IMG/VR virus record: IMGVR_UViG_3300021185_003284
Span: 32,001-96,000 of that record
DNA: 64,000 bases
Direction: 5' to 3' (one strand)
Source of the DNA: a virus
Of the stretch, positions 26,415-52,627 are shown piece after piece. The number at the start of each line of letters is the position of its first letter. The first letter of the stretch is position 1. The translations under genes and the position numbers were made by a program. The notes beneath the pieces are model-generated. The model searched no databases, was not told the origin of the DNA, and worked only from the letters and a program-made list of their open reading frames with translations.

Positions 26415-27140
26415 ATGAATGTAGCAGTATTAGTAGAAATTATAAAAGAGACGGACAAAAATTGGCGATTCATATTTGAGTCGCCTTTGTACGATAAGAT
26501 AGATTTCGTCTCTGGCCAGCTTGTTCAATTAGCGATCCAGGATCCTATTGAGGCAGGCTACTACCATAAAAGAAATTATTCAGTAGCATCTTGGCCAGAT
26601 GGTACAAACAGGTTTGAACTTATCATAACCTACATACCTGGAGGTTTATTCTCTGAGTTTTTATTTAAGGAAGCAAAGATAGGAGATGAATTTCTCTACA
26701 GAGGTCCATTAGGAGTATTTACTTTACCGAACTTACAGAAACTAGATAGAGATATATACTTTGTGAGTACTGGTTCCGGAATAAGTCCTTTTAGATCCAT
26801 AATGGGTTGGATAGGAGAAAATCCTGATAAGATAGAAACTAAGAAGCTTAAATTATTCTTTGGTACACGAACTGAAAAGGAAATACTTTATAGAGATGAA
26901 ATGGAGGCTTTAGAAAAGAAGCTTCCTAACTTTGAATTCATTCCAACATTATCTCAAGAACAATGGGACGGTAAAACAGGATATGTCCATGACCACTACC
27001 TTAAACTAATAGATGAGATGGATGAAAAACCTTTAGTATACTATTGTGGATGGGATAAAATGATTAGAGAAGGAAGAAGCCATCTAGATGCTAGAGGATT
27101 TGAAATGACTAAAGATATCAGAGTAGAAATATTTGGATAA
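26415..27140 (+). CDS. Ferredoxin-NADP reductase-like FAD/NAD(P) oxidoreductase
   Basis: RNYSVAS, GGLFSEFL, GPLG.F, TGSGISP, YYCG, C-terminal EIFG. Confidence 0.9.
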   Translation: MNVAVLVEIIKETDKNWRFIFESPLYDKIDFVSGQLVQLAIQDPIEAGYYHKRNYSVASWPDGTNRFELIITYIPGGLFSEFLFKEAKIGDEFLYRGPLGVFTLPNLQKLDRDIYFVSTGSGISPFRSIMGWIGENPDKIETKKLKLFFGTRTEKEILYRDEMEALEKKLPNFEFIPTLSQEQWDGKTGYVHDHYLKLIDEMDEKPLVYYCGWDKMIREGRSHLDARGFEMTKDIRVEIFG

Positions 27141-27586
27141 TGGAAGGACCAATGGCAGCTTTAGACCTTCTTAACGAAAAGGCATTTCAGCATATAAAAA
27201 ATAACGTCGTCACTCAATTAACTTGTAGAAAAATTGGTCTTACGTTTTGTGCTTTGACCGATATTTATAAAGGACAAGAGGTATTCCTACCTTGGGATGG
27301 ACCAACAAGGGAATACAGCTTTATTGTAGATAGGATCGAAGAACTCCACGGAAACGTATTTGGTACCCTACTACGATACTTTGACAATCATTCTTATTTA
27401 GAAAAGGGTGTTGTTAATTTTAAATTAGTGCACGGTGTTAACTTTATAGTGGCACAACCTGAATGTATTTTATCCCCCGATGGAGAGGGTGGCAACTTAG
27501 AGTCAGGAACTATAAAGGCTAGATGGGATATTATTGCTACAACAGAGCTTTCACTCTATGAAGCAAGAAGTAGACCACTTTTGTAA
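27140..27586 (+). CDS. Degenerate SET-domain-like protein
   Basis: 'G..F.ALTDIYKGQEVF' and 'N....IKARWDI...EL..Y'; canonical NHS motif absent. Confidence 0.45.
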   Translation: MEGPMAALDLLNEKAFQHIKNNVVTQLTCRKIGLTFCALTDIYKGQEVFLPWDGPTREYSFIVDRIEELHGNVFGTLLRYFDNHSYLEKGVVNFKLVHGVNFIVAQPECILSPDGEGGNLESGTIKARWDIIATTELSLYEARSRPLL

Positions 27587-27612
27587 TACTATGCGTAATT
27601 GATAATTAACAA

Positions 27613-27620
27613 TATTTATA
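27613..27620 (+). promoter_or_regulatory. Putative late promoter TATTTATA upstream of the ATP-grasp/Hint gene
   Basis: Same motif precedes structural/lysis genes (4830, 47154, 49957, 58028). Confidence 0.6.
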
Positions 27621-27646
27621 ATAAACACTAATAAAACCCAAAAAGA

Positions 27647-29881
27647 ATGAAAGGTACATTATTTTCAGCTGACTTTGTAAAAGACGGAAACGGCGATAGT
27701 AAACTAATCGAAATCAACACTGATACAGCTTGTATCGCAGGATTAGCTTCTAACATCGACTTTACTGATCTTTACTCAGTTTTAGCTACAAACACAATCA
27801 CAGACCTACAGGTAATCTATAAAGAATTTCAAGAGCCAATCTTAGATAGACTTAAAGCTCAGAAACCTGAGGGAGTAACAATCACCGAACATAAGGAAAT
27901 ACACTCTTCTATATATCCAACTTCTATAGCAGACGATGCTACTAAGTTTATATTGAGATTAGCTTATGACGAAAATGCATTATTAGATGCCATTTACGCT
28001 AAAAATGATGCAAACTTACATGGTTTGTTCGGAGCACAAGGACCAGCATCAGCATCACTTGTAGTATCTGCTAAACAGTCAGCAGATTCCTCTAACCTTA
28101 ATTACGTATTAAACGGACCAACAGAACCAGATTTTGCTGTTAAGCCTAAAGTTCCTACTAAATCAGGAATTGACTTTTATAAGCTAGGAGGTTCAACAGG
28201 ATCTATTGAAGACAGGATAAACGAATTTACTGCTTCTATTGATTCAGGCGTTAATGTAATTACAAACTACGTTAGTGATGCAACAGATACAGCTAAGTCA
28301 GTAAGATCATATCAAATCGTATATGGAGCTGATTTAGATATCACTTGGTTAGGTGCTTATACTCTTGATGCTTTATTTACTCATACTTTAAGTTTAGTAT
28401 ACGATGATAATAAAGTAGTTAATAAATTAGCTAACAAGCATTACTATGAATTTGCTACTAATGACATCTCAGATAACGAAGGTGTTTATTATGAGGCTAA
28501 AATTAAGAAAGAAGATGGTAACTACGATGTAGCGGAAGATGCAGTAATAGGTACATTATATGATTCTTATTATGTAAGTGGATCGCCGATGACTGATAAC
28601 AGTCTTATATTAGACTCATGGTCTTTTGCTGGAGATACTCTACCTTCTGGTTCATATAGTACATCATCATCTTTACAGTCAAACACTTCAGTCACAATGG
28701 GAGATAATTCATTAAGAAGAATTACTCTTGATGACGGACAAACAGTACTATTAGGAGGAGCTAACAGAGCATTAGTACATGATAATGTTAATAATGAAAC
28801 TTCTTACTTAAGAGCTAGAGATATTAAAGCTGGATTCAAATTATTTGATGAAAACGGAGCTAGTAAAGGAGTTACTGCACATGATATAATCATATTAGAT
28901 AACGACTCAGATTCTAAAATTATAGAATTAGGAGTAGAGGATGTAGATAACTATGTTGTAAGTGGGTCTAATACTATTATTCACAACGCACCTTGTTTCA
29001 TTGCCGGAACTAAAGTTAATATGGAAGACGGTTCAATGAAGAATATTGAAGACGTTAAAGAAGGAGATCAAGTATGTTGTTGGGACTTTGAAATAAATGG
29101 TTTCTCAAATGAGAAAGTATTAATAACTACTGAAACAGAAGATCAGAAAGTAGTACAGATAACATTTAAATGCTTCGGTAATGATCTAGATATATATGCA
29201 ACTCCAGACCATCCATTCTTTGTAGAAGGTGGTAAAGGTTGGGCATGTCAAGATCCAGAATTACTTAAAGAAAAGACTGGAATGGAAGCTGCTCTATTAG
29301 ATGCAGGAGATAGTATACTGACAGGTAAGGAAGGAGAAACTTCTATTGTTACAGGAATTACTTCTTGTGACTGGACAGCGACAGTATATAACTTAGATAA
29401 CGTATTCAAATATAATAACTACTTTATATATGGAATGTTAGTACACAACAGATTTATCTTTTCTTGTCATACTTATGATAGTAAAGTAGAAATGGCTGAT
29501 GGTACTCACAAAGCTATAGGAGAAGTAAAAGTTGGAGATAAAGTAAAATCTATCAAAGACGGAATCGTAACAGAAGGTACTGTTACTGATCATTTAATTC
29601 ACGTTACTAACGATGTAATGAGAACAATCAAAACTACTAATGGATATACAGAAATCAATCACCCAATCTTAGTTGACGGTGAGTGGGTAGCTGCTAAAGA
29701 ATTAGGAGAAGTAGAAAGTGTATTTGTTGATAACTTCTATAACTTAGAAATTGACGGAAACATTTCTGAAAGTGATCATAACTATATCGTTGACGGAATG
29801 GTATCATCAGGATTAGGAGACAGCAAAGAGCTTAATGCTAAATATCAGAGACAACCTAAACAATTAACTAAACACTTATAA
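27647..29881 (+). CDS. Circularly permuted ATP-grasp-like domain fused to three tandem Hint (intein-like) domains
   Basis: N-term SADF...G..KLIEINT and FAVKP; Hint1 G279-N447 (ends IIHN), Hint2 C450-N601 (CFIAGT, TPDHPF, LVHN), Hint3 from C607 (CHTYDS, NHPI, ends GMVSSG). Confidence 0.85.
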   Translation: MKGTLFSADFVKDGNGDSKLIEINTDTACIAGLASNIDFTDLYSVLATNTITDLQVIYKEFQEPILDRLKAQKPEGVTITEHKEIHSSIYPTSIADDATKFILRLAYDENALLDAIYAKNDANLHGLFGAQGPASASLVVSAKQSADSSNLNYVLNGPTEPDFAVKPKVPTKSGIDFYKLGGSTGSIEDRINEFTASIDSGVNVITNYVSDATDTAKSVRSYQIVYGADLDITWLGAYTLDALFTHTLSLVYDDNKVVNKLANKHYYEFATNDISDNEGVYYEAKIKKEDGNYDVAEDAVIGTLYDSYYVSGSPMTDNSLILDSWSFAGDTLPSGSYSTSSSLQSNTSVTMGDNSLRRITLDDGQTVLLGGANRALVHDNVNNETSYLRARDIKAGFKLFDENGASKGVTAHDIIILDNDSDSKIIELGVEDVDNYVVSGSNTIIHNAPCFIAGTKVNMEDGSMKNIEDVKEGDQVCCWDFEINGFSNEKVLITTETEDQKVVQITFKCFGNDLDIYATPDHPFFVEGGKGWACQDPELLKEKTGMEAALLDAGDSILTGKEGETSIVTGITSCDWTATVYNLDNVFKYNNYFIYGMLVHNRFIFSCHTYDSKVEMADGTHKAIGEVKVGDKVKSIKDGIVTEGTVTDHLIHVTNDVMRTIKTTNGYTEINHPILVDGEWVAAKELGEVESVFVDNFYNLEIDGNISESDHNYIVDGMVSSGLGDSKELNAKYQRQPKQLTKHL

Positions 29882-29883
29882 TC

Positions 29884-30021
29884 ATGCCAGAAATATATAA
29901 AACAATCTCACTAGCAGATTACGGAAACAGAAATGCAACGGCTTTGACTGCTGACGAACAAACAGATGTAAGAGCAACTGTTACTAAGTTCATCGAACTT
30001 TTCAAAGCAGAACATTTATAA
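29884..30021 (+). CDS. 45-aa small protein (not in ORF track)
   Basis: Hand translation MPEIYKTISLADYGNRNATALTADEQTDVRATVTKFIELFKAEHL*; starts 2 nt after the Hint gene stop and ends 9 nt before the next ATG. Confidence 0.75.
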   Translation: MPEIYKTISLADYGNRNATALTADEQTDVRATVTKFIELFKAEHL

Positions 30022-30030
30022 GATAGTTAA

Positions 30031-30573
30031 ATGATCTTAGAGCAAAAGGTTTTATTGACTCCTAAGGAGTGTCAAGATGTAATAGCATCATGTAAAGACA
30101 TTTGGTACCCATCATTATTGGGTAAGGAGGAATATAAACCTAAGCTTAGAAATAGTTTCGTACATATTAAGAAACCAAGAAAAGGAGAGGCCTTGTATGA
30201 ATACATACAAAGAGGCCTTTCCCTTGTTTCTGAAGAGCTCGTATCTGAAGAACCTTTACTTATTCAGATATTAAAATACAAAAAAGGAGGATTTATCTAC
30301 AAGCATAAAGATGACGTTACCTCTTCATTAAATGGTTTAGTTCAAGCACGTTACTACTTTATTATTCTTCTTAATGATGATTTTGAAGGAGGAGATTTTC
30401 TAGCATATGATAATAAAGATACTGTGTATAAATTAGATAGGAAACAAGGTAACATACTTATAGGAGATCCGACTATGTTTCATGAAGTTACTAAAGTTAC
30501 AAAAGGTACAAGATATAGCCTAATATGTTTTATTACACCAGACCTTCTTAAACCTAATAATACTATAATTTAA
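30031..30573 (+). CDS. 2OG-Fe(II) oxygenase (prolyl 4-hydroxylase-like)
   Basis: KY..G....HKD, LNDDFEGG, HEV..V..G.RYSL. Confidence 0.9.
   Translation: MILEQKVLLTPKECQDVIASCKDIWYPSLLGKEEYKPKLRNSFVHIKKPRKGEALYEYIQRGLSLVSEELVSEEPLLIQILKYKKGGFIYKHKDDVTSSLNGLVQARYYFIILLNDDFEGGDFLAYDNKDTVYKLDRKQGNILIGDPTMFHEVTKVTKGTRYSLICFITPDLLKPNNTII
30182..30229 (+). terminator. Strong intragenic hairpin followed by a T-rich tract (possible attenuator)
   Basis: GGAGAGGCC/GGCCTTTCC plus TTGTATG/CATACAA stems, AATA loop, then CTTGTTT. Confidence 0.45.
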
Positions 30574-31121
30574 TGAAACCTAATTTTAAACATTATGGTT
30601 CTATAAATGTAGCTCCTTTTCTTTCTGCTTTGGAAGCTATCAAACCTCAAGACTGGAGTAAATATACCTACCGTCAAGACTTATTTCCTATGCATAACAA
30701 AACTCAAACTATACCAGTACTATATGATACAGACTACGAAATAGGAGTAAGTAAAAAATCATCTTTTTACAAAATATTTGAAAGTTCAATAGAGCATGCA
30801 ACTAAAAAGATATCTGAGTTAACCAAATCTAACTGCTCTATAATAAGATTTATTATTACTAACCTTCCAGCTAATACAGTAGTCGATGAGCATAGAGATA
30901 AAGCAAATAGTTTTAAACTTTATAATAGAGTACATATACCTTTAATTACTAATGATAAAGTTCTTTTCACAGTAGGAGAAGAAACAATCAATATGCCTGT
31001 AGGAGAAATGTATGAAATAAACAACAATGATCAACTTCATGGAGTAGTAAATAGCAGTAACCAAGACAGGCTACATATTATTTTAGATTGGTATGATTAT
31101 ACTAAAAGAACAGCCATATGA
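30573..31121 (+). CDS. Aspartyl/asparaginyl beta-hydroxylase-like 2OG-Fe(II) oxygenase
   Basis: HRD, RVHIPLITN, GEMYEINN, H.V.N....RLHIILD. Confidence 0.85.
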   Translation: MKPNFKHYGSINVAPFLSALEAIKPQDWSKYTYRQDLFPMHNKTQTIPVLYDTDYEIGVSKKSSFYKIFESSIEHATKKISELTKSNCSIIRFIITNLPANTVVDEHRDKANSFKLYNRVHIPLITNDKVLFTVGEETINMPVGEMYEINNNDQLHGVVNSSNQDRLHIILDWYDYTKRTAI

Positions 31122-31609
31122 AAAATATACTAATAATAGCATTACCAAGATCAGGAGGAACTTCTATTATGCATCAGTTAGCTGAAAAGCATAATTTAAA
31201 AGCAAGATTTGAACCTGAATTAACTCAATGGCCAGTAGCACCTAAAGACGACGTTACCAAAGTTATTGTTGATAGATTCAGTATGGTAGATATTTTTTCT
31301 ATAGCTGAAAATTACGATAATATTATATTGCATAGCAGACATGATATAGAATCTACAGCAGAATCTTTAGCTACAATGCTTCATCACTGGGGAGATGAAA
31401 GTCATGCTGAGAAACCATGGCATGCTGATTTACTCAAAGAAGTACCGCAGTGGTATTTAGAGCAAACTAACCATAGAATAGTACATTGTCAATTACTAAT
31501 GCATGTATTAAGTGACGAACTTAAAGTACCTATTCAATATTATGAAGATCTATTTGACCTTAATTCAAAAGAAAGATTAAGAAAAGATTTAGATAGAACA
31601 CTGTTATGA
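31118..31609 (+). CDS. Sulfotransferase-like (P-loop) protein
   Basis: IALPRSGGTSI (PAPS 5'-phosphosulfate-binding loop), FEP, YYEDLF. Confidence 0.7.
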   Translation: MKNILIIALPRSGGTSIMHQLAEKHNLKARFEPELTQWPVAPKDDVTKVIVDRFSMVDIFSIAENYDNIILHSRHDIESTAESLATMLHHWGDESHAEKPWHADLLKEVPQWYLEQTNHRIVHCQLLMHVLSDELKVPIQYYEDLFDLNSKERLRKDLDRTLL

Positions 31610-32322
31610 TAAAAATTATATGGACATACGATAAAAATGTATTTCACGATGAGGGTACCATTAAAAATAATAAAGCTTACTATAAAAGATCTATTATAGA
31701 TGCTAAAATATTTGGACATCCAACAGAAATGTACTCTAATGATAGAGATTTTGAACACCTAGTAGATACTTTTCATTATGTAGATACACCAGTAATGTTC
31801 TGGGATGAATTTAAATCATTTCCTCTTCATGATAATAAAAGTGATTTTCTACTATCAGATGGTGATATAATTTGGCACCAAGGCTTCAAAGTAAATAAAA
31901 ATGTTGATGTTTTAATTGATAGTTATGAAGACTTTAATTGGAAATCACTTTACGAAATAGATGTTAATACATTATCTTATTTAGAAATTAATAAGGTTAT
32001 TCCGGAATGGGATGGTAAGAAGAGAGCAGCCTTTTGTACAGGTATACTAAGCTTCAATAATAAAGAATATCAAGCACTTTATTTAGATAGGTATATAAAA
32101 TTTAAAGCATTTGTAGAAAGGTATAGGAATATGCTAGACGTCAGTAAATGTACAGCAATAGGAGCACAGTACCTATTAGCTACTATAGCAGATGTTAAAG
32201 GATATTCTCATTACGCTTACTCTAACAAAGTGAGAGAGAATAATGGCATCTACACACACTACTCAGGCAAGAAGAAACATACCGATAGTTTTCTTCCTCT
32301 TACTAAAAAACATCTACTTTAG
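31606..32322 (+). CDS. Putative GT-A fold nucleotide-diphospho-sugar transferase
   Basis: LSDGDII (DXD), CTGIL, AQYLL, YTHYSG.KK. Confidence 0.55.
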   Translation: MIKIIWTYDKNVFHDEGTIKNNKAYYKRSIIDAKIFGHPTEMYSNDRDFEHLVDTFHYVDTPVMFWDEFKSFPLHDNKSDFLLSDGDIIWHQGFKVNKNVDVLIDSYEDFNWKSLYEIDVNTLSYLEINKVIPEWDGKKRAAFCTGILSFNNKEYQALYLDRYIKFKAFVERYRNMLDVSKCTAIGAQYLLATIADVKGYSHYAYSNKVRENNGIYTHYSGKKKHTDSFLPLTKKHLL

Positions 32323-32567: not shown

Positions 32568-32825
32568 ATGAGAAAGTTTTTAAGGTCTTTAGTTAAAGAA
32601 AGAAAACTTAAACCGGTAGAAAGATTAGGAAATAGGTTGGGCTATATGGGGACTGGATTTATAATGATGTCTCCTTACCTACTTCCTTATGATAATATGG
32701 GTGCCTATACTTATTTAGCAGGAGCATTATTATCTCTTCCTCAGGTTTGGTTAGCTAAACAATGGAACTTAGTTATTGTTAATTTTAATTTACTTATAGG
32801 TTATGGTGCGTATCTTTTTTATTAG
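32568..32825 (+). CDS. Small membrane protein
   Basis: Three hydrophobic segments. Confidence 0.65.
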   Translation: MRKFLRSLVKERKLKPVERLGNRLGYMGTGFIMMSPYLLPYDNMGAYTYLAGALLSLPQVWLAKQWNLVIVNFNLLIGYGAYLFY

Positions 32826-33240
32826 CCTTTTATTATTTCTATCTAATCTAGAGAAGAAAGCTCATAAGGCTATCGCCAAAGAGTATGAAGTTGATCTAGT
32901 AATACTTGACGTATTAGAAGAAGGTTATTTAGATGGAACACTCTACTCTGTCTTAACTGATAAAGGCCCTAAGGGATATGCTTTCATAGGTAGTTCCAAG
33001 TCTAGATACGATGATTTTGAATATCTAGCTCTATTAGATAGTAATTTTGCAATAGTAAAAGTAAAGGTTTTGATCTATAGAGAAAACTATGGAGGTGAAA
33101 TAGGAAGCACAAGATGGTTGAGACAATTCATAGGTTTGAAAGAACCAATTGATAGAGTTTCAGCTATAAGTGGAGCAACAATCTCAGTGAACTCTATACA
33201 CTATTCAGTAAATAAGTTACTGAGAAATATAGGGAAATAG
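32803..33240 (+). CDS. FMN-binding domain protein (RnfG/NqrC-like)
   Basis: YRENYGGEI...WLRQF.G, AISGATIS flavinylation motif. Confidence 0.8.
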   Translation: MVRIFFISLLLFLSNLEKKAHKAIAKEYEVDLVILDVLEEGYLDGTLYSVLTDKGPKGYAFIGSSKSRYDDFEYLALLDSNFAIVKVKVLIYRENYGGEIGSTRWLRQFIGLKEPIDRVSAISGATISVNSIHYSVNKLLRNIGK

Positions 33241-50396: not shown

Positions 50397-50807
50397 ATGG
50401 CATTCGAAGTTAAAAAAATAGATCCATTAGACCTACAGCCTAGAAAAGCTGTCGGTGTGCAGTTGCCATTTTCTGGTAAAAGTGTATTTAATGTAAACTA
50501 CACTACAGAAGCGGCAATTAAGACTAATTTGATCAATTACTTTTTAACAGGTAGAGGCGAAAGATTTTTAAATGTTAATTTTGGTAACTCACTTCAGAAA
50601 CTAGTCTTTGACCAGTTAACTGAGAATAAAGTAAAAGAGATAGATGCACTAGTTAAGGCAGATCTAGCATTCTATTTTCCTAGGGTAGAACCAGTAGAAA
50701 TTAACACACTTGGAATACCGGATAACAATACTGTTCAATTCTCTATGAGGTATAAGGTAAAAAATACCAACATAGAAGATGAGGTGGTAATTAATTTTGA
50801 ACAATAA
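50397..50807 (+). CDS. Baseplate wedge protein, gp25/GPW-like
   Basis: IKTNLINYFLT.RGER...FG..L...VF, FPRV. Confidence 0.85.
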   Translation: MAFEVKKIDPLDLQPRKAVGVQLPFSGKSVFNVNYTTEAAIKTNLINYFLTGRGERFLNVNFGNSLQKLVFDQLTENKVKEIDALVKADLAFYFPRVEPVEINTLGIPDNNTVQFSMRYKVKNTNIEDEVVINFEQ

Positions 50808-52627
50808 TGGCTGAACAAAGAGACATAAAATATGTAAACAGAGAGTTCGGTGACTTTAAAGAACAGTTAGTAGAGTTTGCGAAAAGCTATTTTCCAGACA
50901 GCTATAATGACTTTAATGAAACAGCCCCTGGAATGATGTTTATTGAAATGGCATCATACGTTGGTGATGTACTCTCTTTTTATCAAGACACACAATTACA
51001 AGAAACATTTCTTCAACACGCTCAGAACCCTGCTAATCTATATTCTTTAGCATACATGATGGGCTATAATCCTAGAGTGACTTCAGCTGCTACTGCTGAT
51101 ATATTAGTAGAGCAAAAAGTACAAGCACTTTCTGGAAGCAGCTATACACCCGATTGGGACCAAGCTATCAAAGTACATGAAAACAGTACTATTAAATCCA
51201 CCTCAGAAGGAAACTCTTCTTTTATAATACAGGATACCGTAGACTTTAAATTTTCTAGTTCTTATGATCCTACAGATATTAAAATATCATCAGTAGATGA
51301 TAGTAATAATCCTGCAGAATATATATTAAGTAAGAAGGTTACAGCAATGTCAGGCGTAATAAACACTACTACATCTACATTTGCTTCAGCAGAGAAATTT
51401 GCAACAGTAAACATAACAGATACTAACATAATTAAAGTATTAGATGTTACCGACAGTGACGGTAAAACATGGACAGAAGTTCCTTTCTTAGGACAGGACA
51501 CAGTATTTGATGAACAACAAAACACATCTACTGATAACGCTTTAGTTCCATCTTTAATGCAACTAAAAAAAGTACCTAGAAGATTCGTAACAAGGTTTAC
51601 CTCTAAAGGGGTTATGCAAATACAGTTTGGAGCAGGAATAATTGGCTCATCAGACGACCAGTTTCTTCCAGACCCACAAAATATAAAGAAGTTCGGAGAC
51701 AAACAAGCAGTTGAACAAATCGATAGAGCATTTGATCCATCTAACTTCTTATTTACTAGAACATATGGTTTAGCACCAAGTAATACAACATTAACTATAA
51801 GATACCTTACTGGCGGTGGAGTAGAGTCTAATGCACCTGCCAATTCAATAACTGAAAAAGATGTAGTTACCACCACAGCAACTGATTCAACTTTCCTTGA
51901 CACATTAACGTTTAACAACGAGAAACCTGCATCCGGAGGTAAAGATGGAGATACAGTAGAAGAGTTGAGACAAAATTCTCTTAAGTCATTTAGTGAACAA
52001 AAGAGAGCTGTTACTACATCTGATTATACAGTTAGAGCATTATCTCTACCACCTCAGTTTGGTTCTGTAGCAAAAGCATTTGTAACTCGAGAGTTTAATC
52101 AAAATAGTATTAAATCTCCTCTCGACAGTAATCCTTTAGCACTAGCACTTTATATATTAGCGTATGACAATAGTGGAAAACTAATTACTGCATCGACTTC
52201 TTTAAAGAATAACTTAAAAAAGTATCTCACTGAGTATATGATGATAACAGATGCGATTGATATTAAAGATGCATTTATTATAAACGTAGAAGTAAAATTT
52301 GAAGTTCTCACATTACCTAATTATGCATCAAGAGACGTACTTTTAAACTGTACTAATAAACTAAAAGATTATTTTAAGACAAGTAAGAGAGATATAAATG
52401 GTCCTATCAATACATCTAATGTATTTACAGTACTTGACTCTGTAAAAGGTGTACAGACAGTTAAGTCAGTAGACATATTCAATAAAGCAGGAGGTAATTA
52501 CTCAGGTTTCGGATATGATGTAGAAGGAGCAACCAAAGGAGGAGTAGTTTATCCTTCTTATGACCCTTGTATTTTTGAAATTAAATATCCCGATATAGAT
52601 ATATCAGGGAGAGTAACAACAACATAA
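50807..52627 (+). CDS. Baseplate wedge protein, T4 gp6/baseplate J-like
   Basis: YNDFNE..PG.MFIE..SYVGDVLSFY.D.Q..E, GG.D..T.EE.R, Q.RAVT..DY. Confidence 0.88.
   Translation: MAEQRDIKYVNREFGDFKEQLVEFAKSYFPDSYNDFNETAPGMMFIEMASYVGDVLSFYQDTQLQETFLQHAQNPANLYSLAYMMGYNPRVTSAATADILVEQKVQALSGSSYTPDWDQAIKVHENSTIKSTSEGNSSFIIQDTVDFKFSSSYDPTDIKISSVDDSNNPAEYILSKKVTAMSGVINTTTSTFASAEKFATVNITDTNIIKVLDVTDSDGKTWTEVPFLGQDTVFDEQQNTSTDNALVPSLMQLKKVPRRFVTRFTSKGVMQIQFGAGIIGSSDDQFLPDPQNIKKFGDKQAVEQIDRAFDPSNFLFTRTYGLAPSNTTLTIRYLTGGGVESNAPANSITEKDVVTTTATDSTFLDTLTFNNEKPASGGKDGDTVEELRQNSLKSFSEQKRAVTTSDYTVRALSLPPQFGSVAKAFVTREFNQNSIKSPLDSNPLALALYILAYDNSGKLITASTSLKNNLKKYLTEYMMITDAIDIKDAFIINVEVKFEVLTLPNYASRDVLLNCTNKLKDYFKTSKRDINGPINTSNVFTVLDSVKGVQTVKSVDIFNKAGGNYSGFGYDVEGATKGGVVYPSYDPCIFEIKYPDIDISGRVTTT

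Follow-up and report, generated by a model that had tools for sequence, protein, structure and literature searches.

In the 64,000-nucleotide stretch of DNA analysed here (the window; positions 32,001 to 96,000 of IMG/VR virus record IMGVR_UViG_3300021185_003284, an uncultured marine phage), one gene encodes a protein of 744 amino acids in which three Hint (Hedgehog/intein) domains follow a ligase domain and are separated by only two and five residues, Ala-Pro (AP) and Arg-Phe-Ile-Phe-Ser (RFIFS). What are two such short peptides doing between domains of this kind? An earlier note, made from the sequence alone, had put them forward as candidate products, comparable to the cores of ribosomally synthesized and post-translationally modified peptides (RiPPs). 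Comparison across the family gives a different answer: AP and RFIFS are, on balance, probably leftover pieces of a short tail split by extra Hints, and would be by-products or connectors, not selected products. The gene and its parts are as follows.

27647-29881, plus strand: gene of the 744-residue ligase-Hint1-Hint2-Hint3 polyprotein, from the list of open reading frames (ORFs), the translation and 825 homologues
27647-28480, plus strand: N-domain, residues 1-278, circularly permuted ATP-grasp amide-ligase fold of the glutathione synthetase/glutathionylspermidine synthetase type, from fold searches
28481-28987, plus strand: Hint1, residues 279-447, Gly at position 1, ending in His-Asn, fold match at Z 17-18
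28988-28993, plus strand: mini-extein 1, Ala448-Pro449, from raw sequence and translation
28994-29449, plus strand: Hint2, residues 450-601, resembling A-type bacterial intein-like (BIL) domains, with Cys1, T519-x-x-H522 and His600-Asn601, from Pfam PT-HINT and related models and from the fold
29450-29464, plus strand: mini-extein 2, Arg602-Phe-Ile-Phe-Ser606, from raw sequence and translation
29465-29809, plus strand: Hint3, residues 607-721, Vint-like, from Pfam Vint and the fold
29810-29878, plus strand: C-terminal tail of 23 amino acids ending in Lys-His-Leu, from the translation and a tail hidden Markov model (HMM)

The limits of both peptides were read from the raw sequence and the translation. 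His446-Asn447 is encoded at 28982-28987 and the Cys450 codon starts at 28994, which gives H446 N447 / A448 P449 / C450 at junction 1; His600-Asn601 ends at 29449 and the Cys607 codon starts at 29465, which gives H600 N601 / R602 F I F S606 / C607 at junction 2. The range 28982-29467 accordingly runs from His446 to Cys607, that is, Hint2 plus both linkers. The full-length AlphaFold2 model (mean pLDDT 82) contains three Hint folds, and both linkers lie in low-confidence stretches (pLDDT <50 at 438-449 and 602-606). Two confident Hint-type regions were recognised by Pfam, at 449-601 and 606-724, with PT-HINT (PF07591) as the top model (E 6.1e-18, 65.8 bits vs a cut-off of 27.7). Translation, raw sequence and model superpositions agree that AP and RFIFS are the sole residues between the three folds, as the earlier note had stated, and its claim that little else in the C-terminal two-thirds lies outside Hint folds is approximately right, Hint1 starting at Gly279 and the 23-residue tail following Hint3.

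The catalytic residues of the three Hints were read from 46 aligned full-length relatives with identities as low as 33%. The earlier note had counted a third, upstream Hint, and this was borne out. Hhalign of family sub-alignments matched residues 353-447 to the C-terminal two-thirds of Hint2 (probability 92%) and residues 281-310 to its first block (block A), and the Hint1 model (276/279-446/447) superposed on the C. thermocellum BIL 2lwy (Z 17.9, root-mean-square deviation (rmsd) 1.6, 137 aa), on Hedgehog 1at0 (Z 17.3) and on the RecA mini-intein. In Hint1, G279 and N447 are invariant and a His precedes the Asn; the T-x-x-H motif and a nucleophile at position 1 are absent, and the cleavage predicted for the domain is confined to its own C-terminal end. 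Hint2 carries the full set, with C450, T519, H522 and N601 invariant and a non-nucleophilic Arg602 at +1. Its model (448-603) matched Tetrahymena BIL2 6y75 (Z 21.4, rmsd 1.8, 145 aa, 25% identity), and among solved structures the family profile reached BIL2 at E 2e-25, the C. thermocellum BIL at 1.7e-22 and inteins at 8e-14. By sequence, Hint2 agrees with the A-type BIL on every point of the published summary (PMC4031507), and splicing or autocleavage is predicted for it. Hint3 was matched by Pfam Vint (E 2e-16, 60.6 bits vs a cut-off of 27), its model (606-744) by the Tetrahymena Vint domain 8r2c (Z 15.0), and Hint2 and Hint3 match each other at an hhalign probability of 99.6%. Its Cys1 (C607) is invariant, Ser-Ser or Ser-Gly stands in place of His-Asn, and it is predicted to act only at its N-terminal end; the 23-residue tail behind it is conserved, the tail HMM being found in 113 relatives of this architecture. 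These catalytic sets amount to complementary half-activities, as had been proposed, and with such sets on their flanks AP and RFIFS qualify as genuine mini-exteins.

A canonical intein was considered and ruled out, because the +1 residue is Ala448 after Hint1 and Arg602 after Hint2, with no Cys, Ser or Thr. The Hints do not interrupt a conserved host site but stand in tandem at the C-terminal end, and their lengths of 115-170 aa leave no room for a homing endonuclease. No toxin domain of the kind expected behind a pretoxin-HINT was found after the Hints, where only the 23-residue tail follows. As a separate observation, the Pfam AXH model (Ataxin-1/HBP1 module) covers the first 110 residues of Hint2 (451-559; window 28994-29330) with 50-52 bits vs a cut-off of 33, and the family profile reached Ataxin-1 AXH structures at E ~1e-10, which suggests that AXH may be related to the N-terminal half of the Hint fold.

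The linkers were then compared across the family. The 825 homologues were collected at E <= 0.001 among scored candidates, with a full-length match in most of those listed, and the source names call them 'hypothetical protein'. With the N-domain as query and no filter, 198 cluster representatives at 50% identity were found, and two scans of IMG/VR gave 171 and 253 stretches encoding a relative, with 160 loci. Junctions were read exactly in 321 unique proteins, using an HMM built for each domain:

Hint1-Hint2 junction, 238 cases: His-Asn upstream in 234, next residue Cys in 238
Hint2-Hint3 junction, 126 cases: His-Asn upstream in 125, next residue Cys in 126
Hint2-Hint2 junction, 61 cases: His-Asn in 61, Cys in 61, +1 residue Arg in 31 and Lys in 15 (46/61), linker length 1-36
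Hint2 as last domain, 127 cases: His-Asn in 127, a single Lys as remainder in 82, otherwise a few residues with Lys

The linker between Hint1 and Hint2 was AP in 128 of the 238 junctions, SP in 13, GP in 4 and a single Ala in 6, and was missing in 34; X-Pro forms came to 146 in total, 18 of them other than AP, and the remaining linkers were 3-14 Gly/Tyr-rich residues apart from two Cys-rich cases of 35 and 61 residues. Between Hint2 and Hint3, 61 distinct linkers of 1-14 residues were found, with Arg (97) or Lys (11) at +1 in 108 of 126 and hydrophobic residues at 65% vs a background of 39%. In one tri-Hint clade the first linker is lacking (HN-C) and the second is reduced to one or two residues (HN-K-C or HN-WK-C). 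Linker 1 is therefore conserved or absent, not hypervariable, and linker 2 is a basic residue followed by a hydrophobic stretch of variable length. Hypervariability of the RiPP-core kind, proposed in the earlier note as a check, is not a property of linker 1, nor does RFIFS behave as such a core, its +1 residue staying basic while the linker can shrink to that residue. In support of that proposal, slots of some relatives hold Cys-rich peptides of 28-61 aa. Across the family, junction chemistry is constrained far more strongly than linker content: His-Asn is kept in 234/238 and Cys in 238/238, around linkers of 0-61 aa.

The nature of the linkers becomes clearer from relatives with fewer Hints. 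In a sister branch, which is more remote and just as abundant, a six-Cys peptide of 27-33 residues comes straight after ligase-Hint1 and ends in Lys plus zero to two residues (loci L081-L160, e.g. L118:6001-7488 and L083:6001-7932). In several members the Cys peptide is flanked by Hint1 on one side and by a Hint2 on the other, with a Lys once more behind the Hint2, and two proteins have Cys-rich inserts between two Hint2 domains (the proteins noted for these forms are P0237, P0238, P0248, P0249, P0245, P0198 and P0202). Other members without extra Hints have only a Lys-bearing tail of 1-10 residues after Hint1, and almost every member of the ligase-Hint family has a Lys at its C-terminus or close to it. 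On a FastTree tree of ligase plus Hint1 from 219 representatives, presence of an extra Hint changed at least 14 times (shuffled mean 50) and whole architecture at least 55 times. The nearest pairs that differ in architecture are instructive: PAPPPKL, with no extra Hint, stands beside AP[Hint2]RGIPKL, and a Cys-peptide ending in K beside Cys-peptide[Hint2]KK. Extra Hints have thus been gained or lost many times inside the tail, and AP and RFIFS read best as fragments of that tail, while being true mini-exteins.

The protein may then be described as a phage autoprocessing polyprotein made of a permuted ATP-grasp ligase, a core Hint1 and a short C-terminal tail, in which two extra modules, the A-type BIL-like Hint2 and the Vint/Hedgehog-like Hint3, would have split the tail in this lineage. 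AP would be the tail start, at +1/+2 after Hint1, and RFIFS the next piece, behind the inserted A-type BIL, with Arg602 as the conserved basic +1 residue of Hint2-type domains. Processing would begin when Asn447 cyclises and cuts between His-Asn and Ala, separating ligase-Hint1 from the rest; Cys450 and Cys607 would form thioesters with Pro449 and Ser606, and cyclisation of Asn601 would free the amine of Arg602. Attack of this amine on the Pro449 thioester could expel Hint2 and join AP to RFIFS; alternatively, water could attack, giving free AP or its diketopiperazine and free RFIFS. Hint3 would make no cut behind itself, keep the tail and perform only N-terminal thioester chemistry. A-type BILs were reported to splice through aminolysis where no +1 nucleophile is present, cleavage being the main outcome (PMC4031507). 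Of the two chemistries raised in the earlier note, the comparison favours the aminolytic joining of AP to R..., which better fits the pair PAPPPKL and AP[Hint2]RGIPKL and remains a predicted ligation, over a selected Ala-Pro diketopiperazine. The peptides themselves would be constrained by junction chemistry and by their identity as tail, and selection would act on the ligase-Hint1 core, the Lys-bearing tail, a 45-aa partner and an oxygenase island encoded nearby.

Several points weigh against the reading of AP and RFIFS as tail fragments. In the close clade (at least 59% identity), AP never varies, linker 2 has the form R-x-I-F-x, and both are better conserved than some adjoining Hint positions, which could mean a function of their own. 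The hydrophobicity of linker 2 (0.65 vs 0.39) is unusual for a passive spacer. A Pro at -1 of an intein-type Cys is known from intein expression systems as a poor context for the acyl shift, so that efficient splicing by Hint2 is uncertain. The tree comes from FastTree, and truncation may affect some of the metagenomic proteins.

The neighbouring genes were compared between this branch (60 unique loci) and the Cys-peptide branch (63 unique loci). In the window, the genes directly behind the polyprotein gene are:

29884-30021, plus strand: 45-aa partner ORF, directly downstream of the Hint gene
30031-30573, plus strand: 2-oxoglutarate (2OG)-Fe(II) oxygenase, PF13640 2OG-FeII_Oxy_3, Pfam E 3.2e-9
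30573-31121, plus strand: Asp/Asn beta-hydroxylase-like oxygenase, PF05118, E 4.6e-11
31118-31609, plus strand: 163-aa protein of a recurrent neighbour family, no Pfam match, at 21 loci of this branch and 44 of the Cys-peptide branch

A homologue of the 45-aa ORF is the next gene in 50/60 loci of this branch and 49/63 of the other, and the two sets are homologous (hhalign probability 94.8%). An Arg in the first half of the ORF is conserved, as Arg-Pro in the Cys-peptide branch, and its C-terminal helix closes with Lys-His-Leu/Ser; no Pfam match was found for it, and its Atlas neighbours are only sub-threshold. The oxygenase that the earlier note had placed two genes downstream is real, lying directly behind this ORF, and of all enzymes near the gene, 2OG-Fe(II) oxygenases are the most constant, lying no more than six genes away in 54/60 and 54/63 loci; three further neighbour families recur. 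The implied tie between this enzyme and the Pro of AP did not hold up. The oxygenase was found at 19/22 loci with an X-Pro linker, 9/9 without linker, 25/28 with other linkers and 54/63 of the Cys-peptide branch, that is, whatever the linker type, and so its presence gives no support for hydroxylation of that Pro. Neither of the two oxygenases has a relative in the Protein Data Bank (PDB) by sequence. A ferredoxin-NADP reductase-like flavoprotein (FAD_binding_6/NAD_binding_1; 26415-27140, plus strand) lies two genes upstream of the Hint gene and a protein with an FMN_bind domain (32803-33240, plus strand) downstream; they could be redox partners that serve the oxygenases.

A common C-terminus of the type Lys-(Ser/Thr)-(Leu/Ile)-(Leu/Ile) was seen in at least 10 unrelated neighbour families, oxygenases and proteins of unknown function alike (window 27140-32322; L001-L160). 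In the window, proteins of the island end in ...RPLL, ...NTII, ...RTLL and ...KHLL, the Hint protein in ...KHL and the 45-aa ORF in ...EHL. Four island genes in the window end in two hydrophobic residues, vs 11/103 ORFs overall. The shared C-terminus may be a docking tag or a ligase-recognition tag.

The assignment of the N-domain rests on its fold, which sequence models do not reach. GSP_synth was the top Pfam model but stayed below its cut-off (E 0.053, 13 bits vs 29.3), so that no Pfam membership was found, and phmmer against PDB sequences gave no significant match. The model of residues 1-278 (pLDDT 91.9) was matched by Foldseek to human glutathione synthetase at the top (E 1e-7), with YjfC/YgiC and GspS next; the human, yeast, plant and trypanosome glutathione synthetases and E. 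coli YjfC/YgiC ranked at E 1e-7 to 1e-2, and glutathionylspermidine and trypanothione synthetases and the E-64 ligase Cp1B fell in the same range. With VIA-align, this group aligned over residues 1-274 at Z 9.5-8.2, the best being YgiC 7uka (Z 9.5), whereas alignment to the classical ATP-grasps (LysX/ArgX, RimK, TTLL, Ddl) started at about residue 50 with Z 5-6. Such a difference in starting point marks a circularly permuted ATP-grasp. D9, E22 and N24 are invariant, from which an intact ATP-grasp site is predicted. The N-domain shares with eukaryotic glutathione synthetase, GspS and YgiC/YjfC the permutation from residue 1 and, in D9/E22/N24, an acidic/Asn cluster, but it has 278 residues against 370-600 in these enzymes and about 10% sequence identity to them.

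How do other explanations of the locus fare against this evidence? If the mini-exteins were selected products, an Ala-Pro diketopiperazine would be made, or an APRFIFS thioester on Hint3 would be cyclised or released as a bioactive peptide, possibly hydroxylated by the adjoining oxygenases. The arrangement of a C-cleaving Hint, a peptide and a thioester-forming Hint is indeed real, linker 1 is X-Pro in 146/238 relatives, both linkers are kept within the close clade, and the Cys-rich peptides of 28-61 aa in slots of relatives indicate that a slot can carry cargo. X-Pro thioesters cyclise readily in peptide and non-ribosomal peptide synthetase chemistry, which counts on the same side. However, linker 1 is absent in 34/238, linker 2 is a single basic residue in many tri-Hint relatives, AP is not hypervariable and the oxygenase neighbour is independent of X-Pro. 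Moreover, most family members end in Hint2-Lys, without any peptide for a thioester-forming Hint to activate, and we consider this explanation improbable. A somewhat better, though still low, chance is given to the idea that the Hints are acyl-transfer platforms by analogy with BIL2 of Tetrahymena BUBL or with Hedgehog. Thioesters at Cys450 and Cys607 would pass the upstream chain to a lysine or another nucleophile, the linkers being acyl-donor ends; the chain passed would be ligase-Hint1-AP, Hint2-RFIFS or small peptides after upstream cleavage, and candidate acceptors are the conserved near-C-terminal Lys of the family, the 45-aa partner and the island enzymes. BIL2, which forms Lys-epsilon isopeptides and conjugates its N-extein to substrates (PMC8616854), is the closest solved relative of Hint2, and this transfer, together with the near-universal tail Lys, keeps the idea alive. 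Hint3 is Vint/Hedgehog-like with a conserved tail behind it, and the 45-aa partner and many island proteins have conserved Lys-containing C-terminal ends. On the other side, the acceptors remain candidates and the idea is drawn entirely from analogy, the +1 residue of Hint2 is here Arg and not Lys, and the invariant terminal Asn of Hint1 would detach the ligase before transfer.

That no autoprocessing takes place, the Hint folds being structural or binding modules with intein-like residues by descent and the linkers hinges, is very unlikely. AXH domains use Hint folds for binding, and the Pfam AXH match to Hint2 is above cut-off; nevertheless, Cys1 is kept in 238/238, His-Asn in 234/238, 125/126, 61/61 and 127/127, and T-x-x-H is near-invariant, all at about 35% identity, which is hard to explain without catalysis. 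A further proposal, to which we give little credence, is that phages use the ligase-Hint family to build conjugates of peptides or proteins with no need of a ribosome-independent synthetase. An amine would be freed by Hint1, the next Hint (as thioester) or the ATP-grasp (as acyl phosphate) would activate a carboxyl, and the intervening piece would undergo cyclisation or be transferred to a lysine, either in the 45-aa partner or in the tagged island enzymes. This piece would be AP, RFIFS or APRFIFS here and the six-Cys peptide in relatives, and the mini-exteins would be the minimal natural cargo of a self-contained 'two-intein' ligation cassette. The reading of AP and RFIFS as pieces of a split tail is thus preferred.

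As to the source, the virus record from which the window was taken is a 113-kb IMG/VR entry estimated to be 68% complete, with T4-like baseplate genes in the window. Its baseplate wedge protein (50807-52627, plus strand) is 56% identical to its counterpart in Flavobacterium phage vB_FspM_immuto (160 kb). Judged by this protein, that phage is the nearest cultured relative, which hints at a possible Bacteroidota host. A protein search of the phage collection found no relative of the 744-aa protein in vB_FspM_immuto. Against 50,697 GenBank phage records, tblastn of the protein found only mycobacteriophage inteins (E ~1e-6); megablast of 12 kb against GenBank phage records gave no match, and PHROGs holds no family for the protein. 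One family member (L097, IMGVR_UViG_GVMAG-M-3300009164-63_000001) lies on a contig labelled as a giant-virus metagenome-assembled genome, which is either a mis-binned phage fragment or a sign of a wider host range of the family.

Hint domains have so far been assigned roles in inteins, Hedgehog processing, toxin release and ciliate ubiquitin dispensing, and each of these offers a comparison. The A-type BIL of C. thermocellum (2lwy) shares with Hint2 the Cys1, the T-x-x-H, the C-terminal His-Asn and the lack of a +1 nucleophile, and such BILs were reported to cleave at both ends and to be able to ligate their flanks by aminolysis (Amitai 2003; Dassa 2004; summarised in PMC4031507). Here, in contrast, the flanks are 2 and 5 residues, the neighbours are further Hints, and the host is a phage ATP-grasp ligase instead of a secreted bacterial protein. 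Tetrahymena BUBL, in which BIL domains alternate with ubiquitin-like domains, provides the top match of Hint2 in structure and sequence (BIL2, 6y75/6tmm), and its polyprotein has Hints that bracket cargo and dispense it via a thioester to a Lys-epsilon isopeptide (PMC8616854). Its cargo is a folded ubiquitin-like domain, whereas the slots here hold 0-5 residues, or Cys peptides of about 30 aa in relatives; BUBL is eukaryotic, without ligase domain and ATP, and the present protein is viral. Hedgehog/Hog and Vint domains (PF01079, PF14623; PMC2362128) resemble Hint3 in Cys1, the missing terminal Asn and a conserved C-terminal extension, but Hint3 has neither a sterol-recognition-like region nor a vWA partner, and its N-extein is another Hint plus five residues. 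Like the pretoxin-HINT (PF07591) of polymorphic toxins, Hint1 would release whatever is C-terminal to it; there is here no toxin domain, and the protein has three tandem Hints and an N-terminal ATP-grasp.

The closest parallel in logic is found in the laboratory. Engineered TWIN-type vectors and SICLOPPS place a C-cleaving Hint before a peptide and a thioester-forming Hint after it, as here. Those are constructs with a chosen cargo and an N-terminal Cys, while here there is hardly any cargo, and its first residue is Ala or Arg. In our literature search, neither a fusion of ATP-grasp and Hint nor comparable tandem Hints turned up in any paper, and the tri-Hint form with its near-empty slots is placed within the BIL/Hint autoprocessing polyproteins, not as a new chemistry. 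What is added is a family from large aquatic phages, widespread and so far undescribed. Its members always combine a permuted ATP-grasp ligase with a C-cleaving Hint in one chain, and BIL- or Vint-like Hints come and go within a short Lys-bearing tail, with the present protein as the extreme case of three Hints spaced by two and five residues. Since the Hint chemistry is kept though almost nothing is left to release, attention is moved away from a 'peptide product' and towards the ligase, Hint1, the tail Lys, the 45-aa partner and the oxygenases. Should the junction peptides nevertheless be transferred or cyclised, the protein would be a natural counterpart of the engineered two-intein ligation systems.

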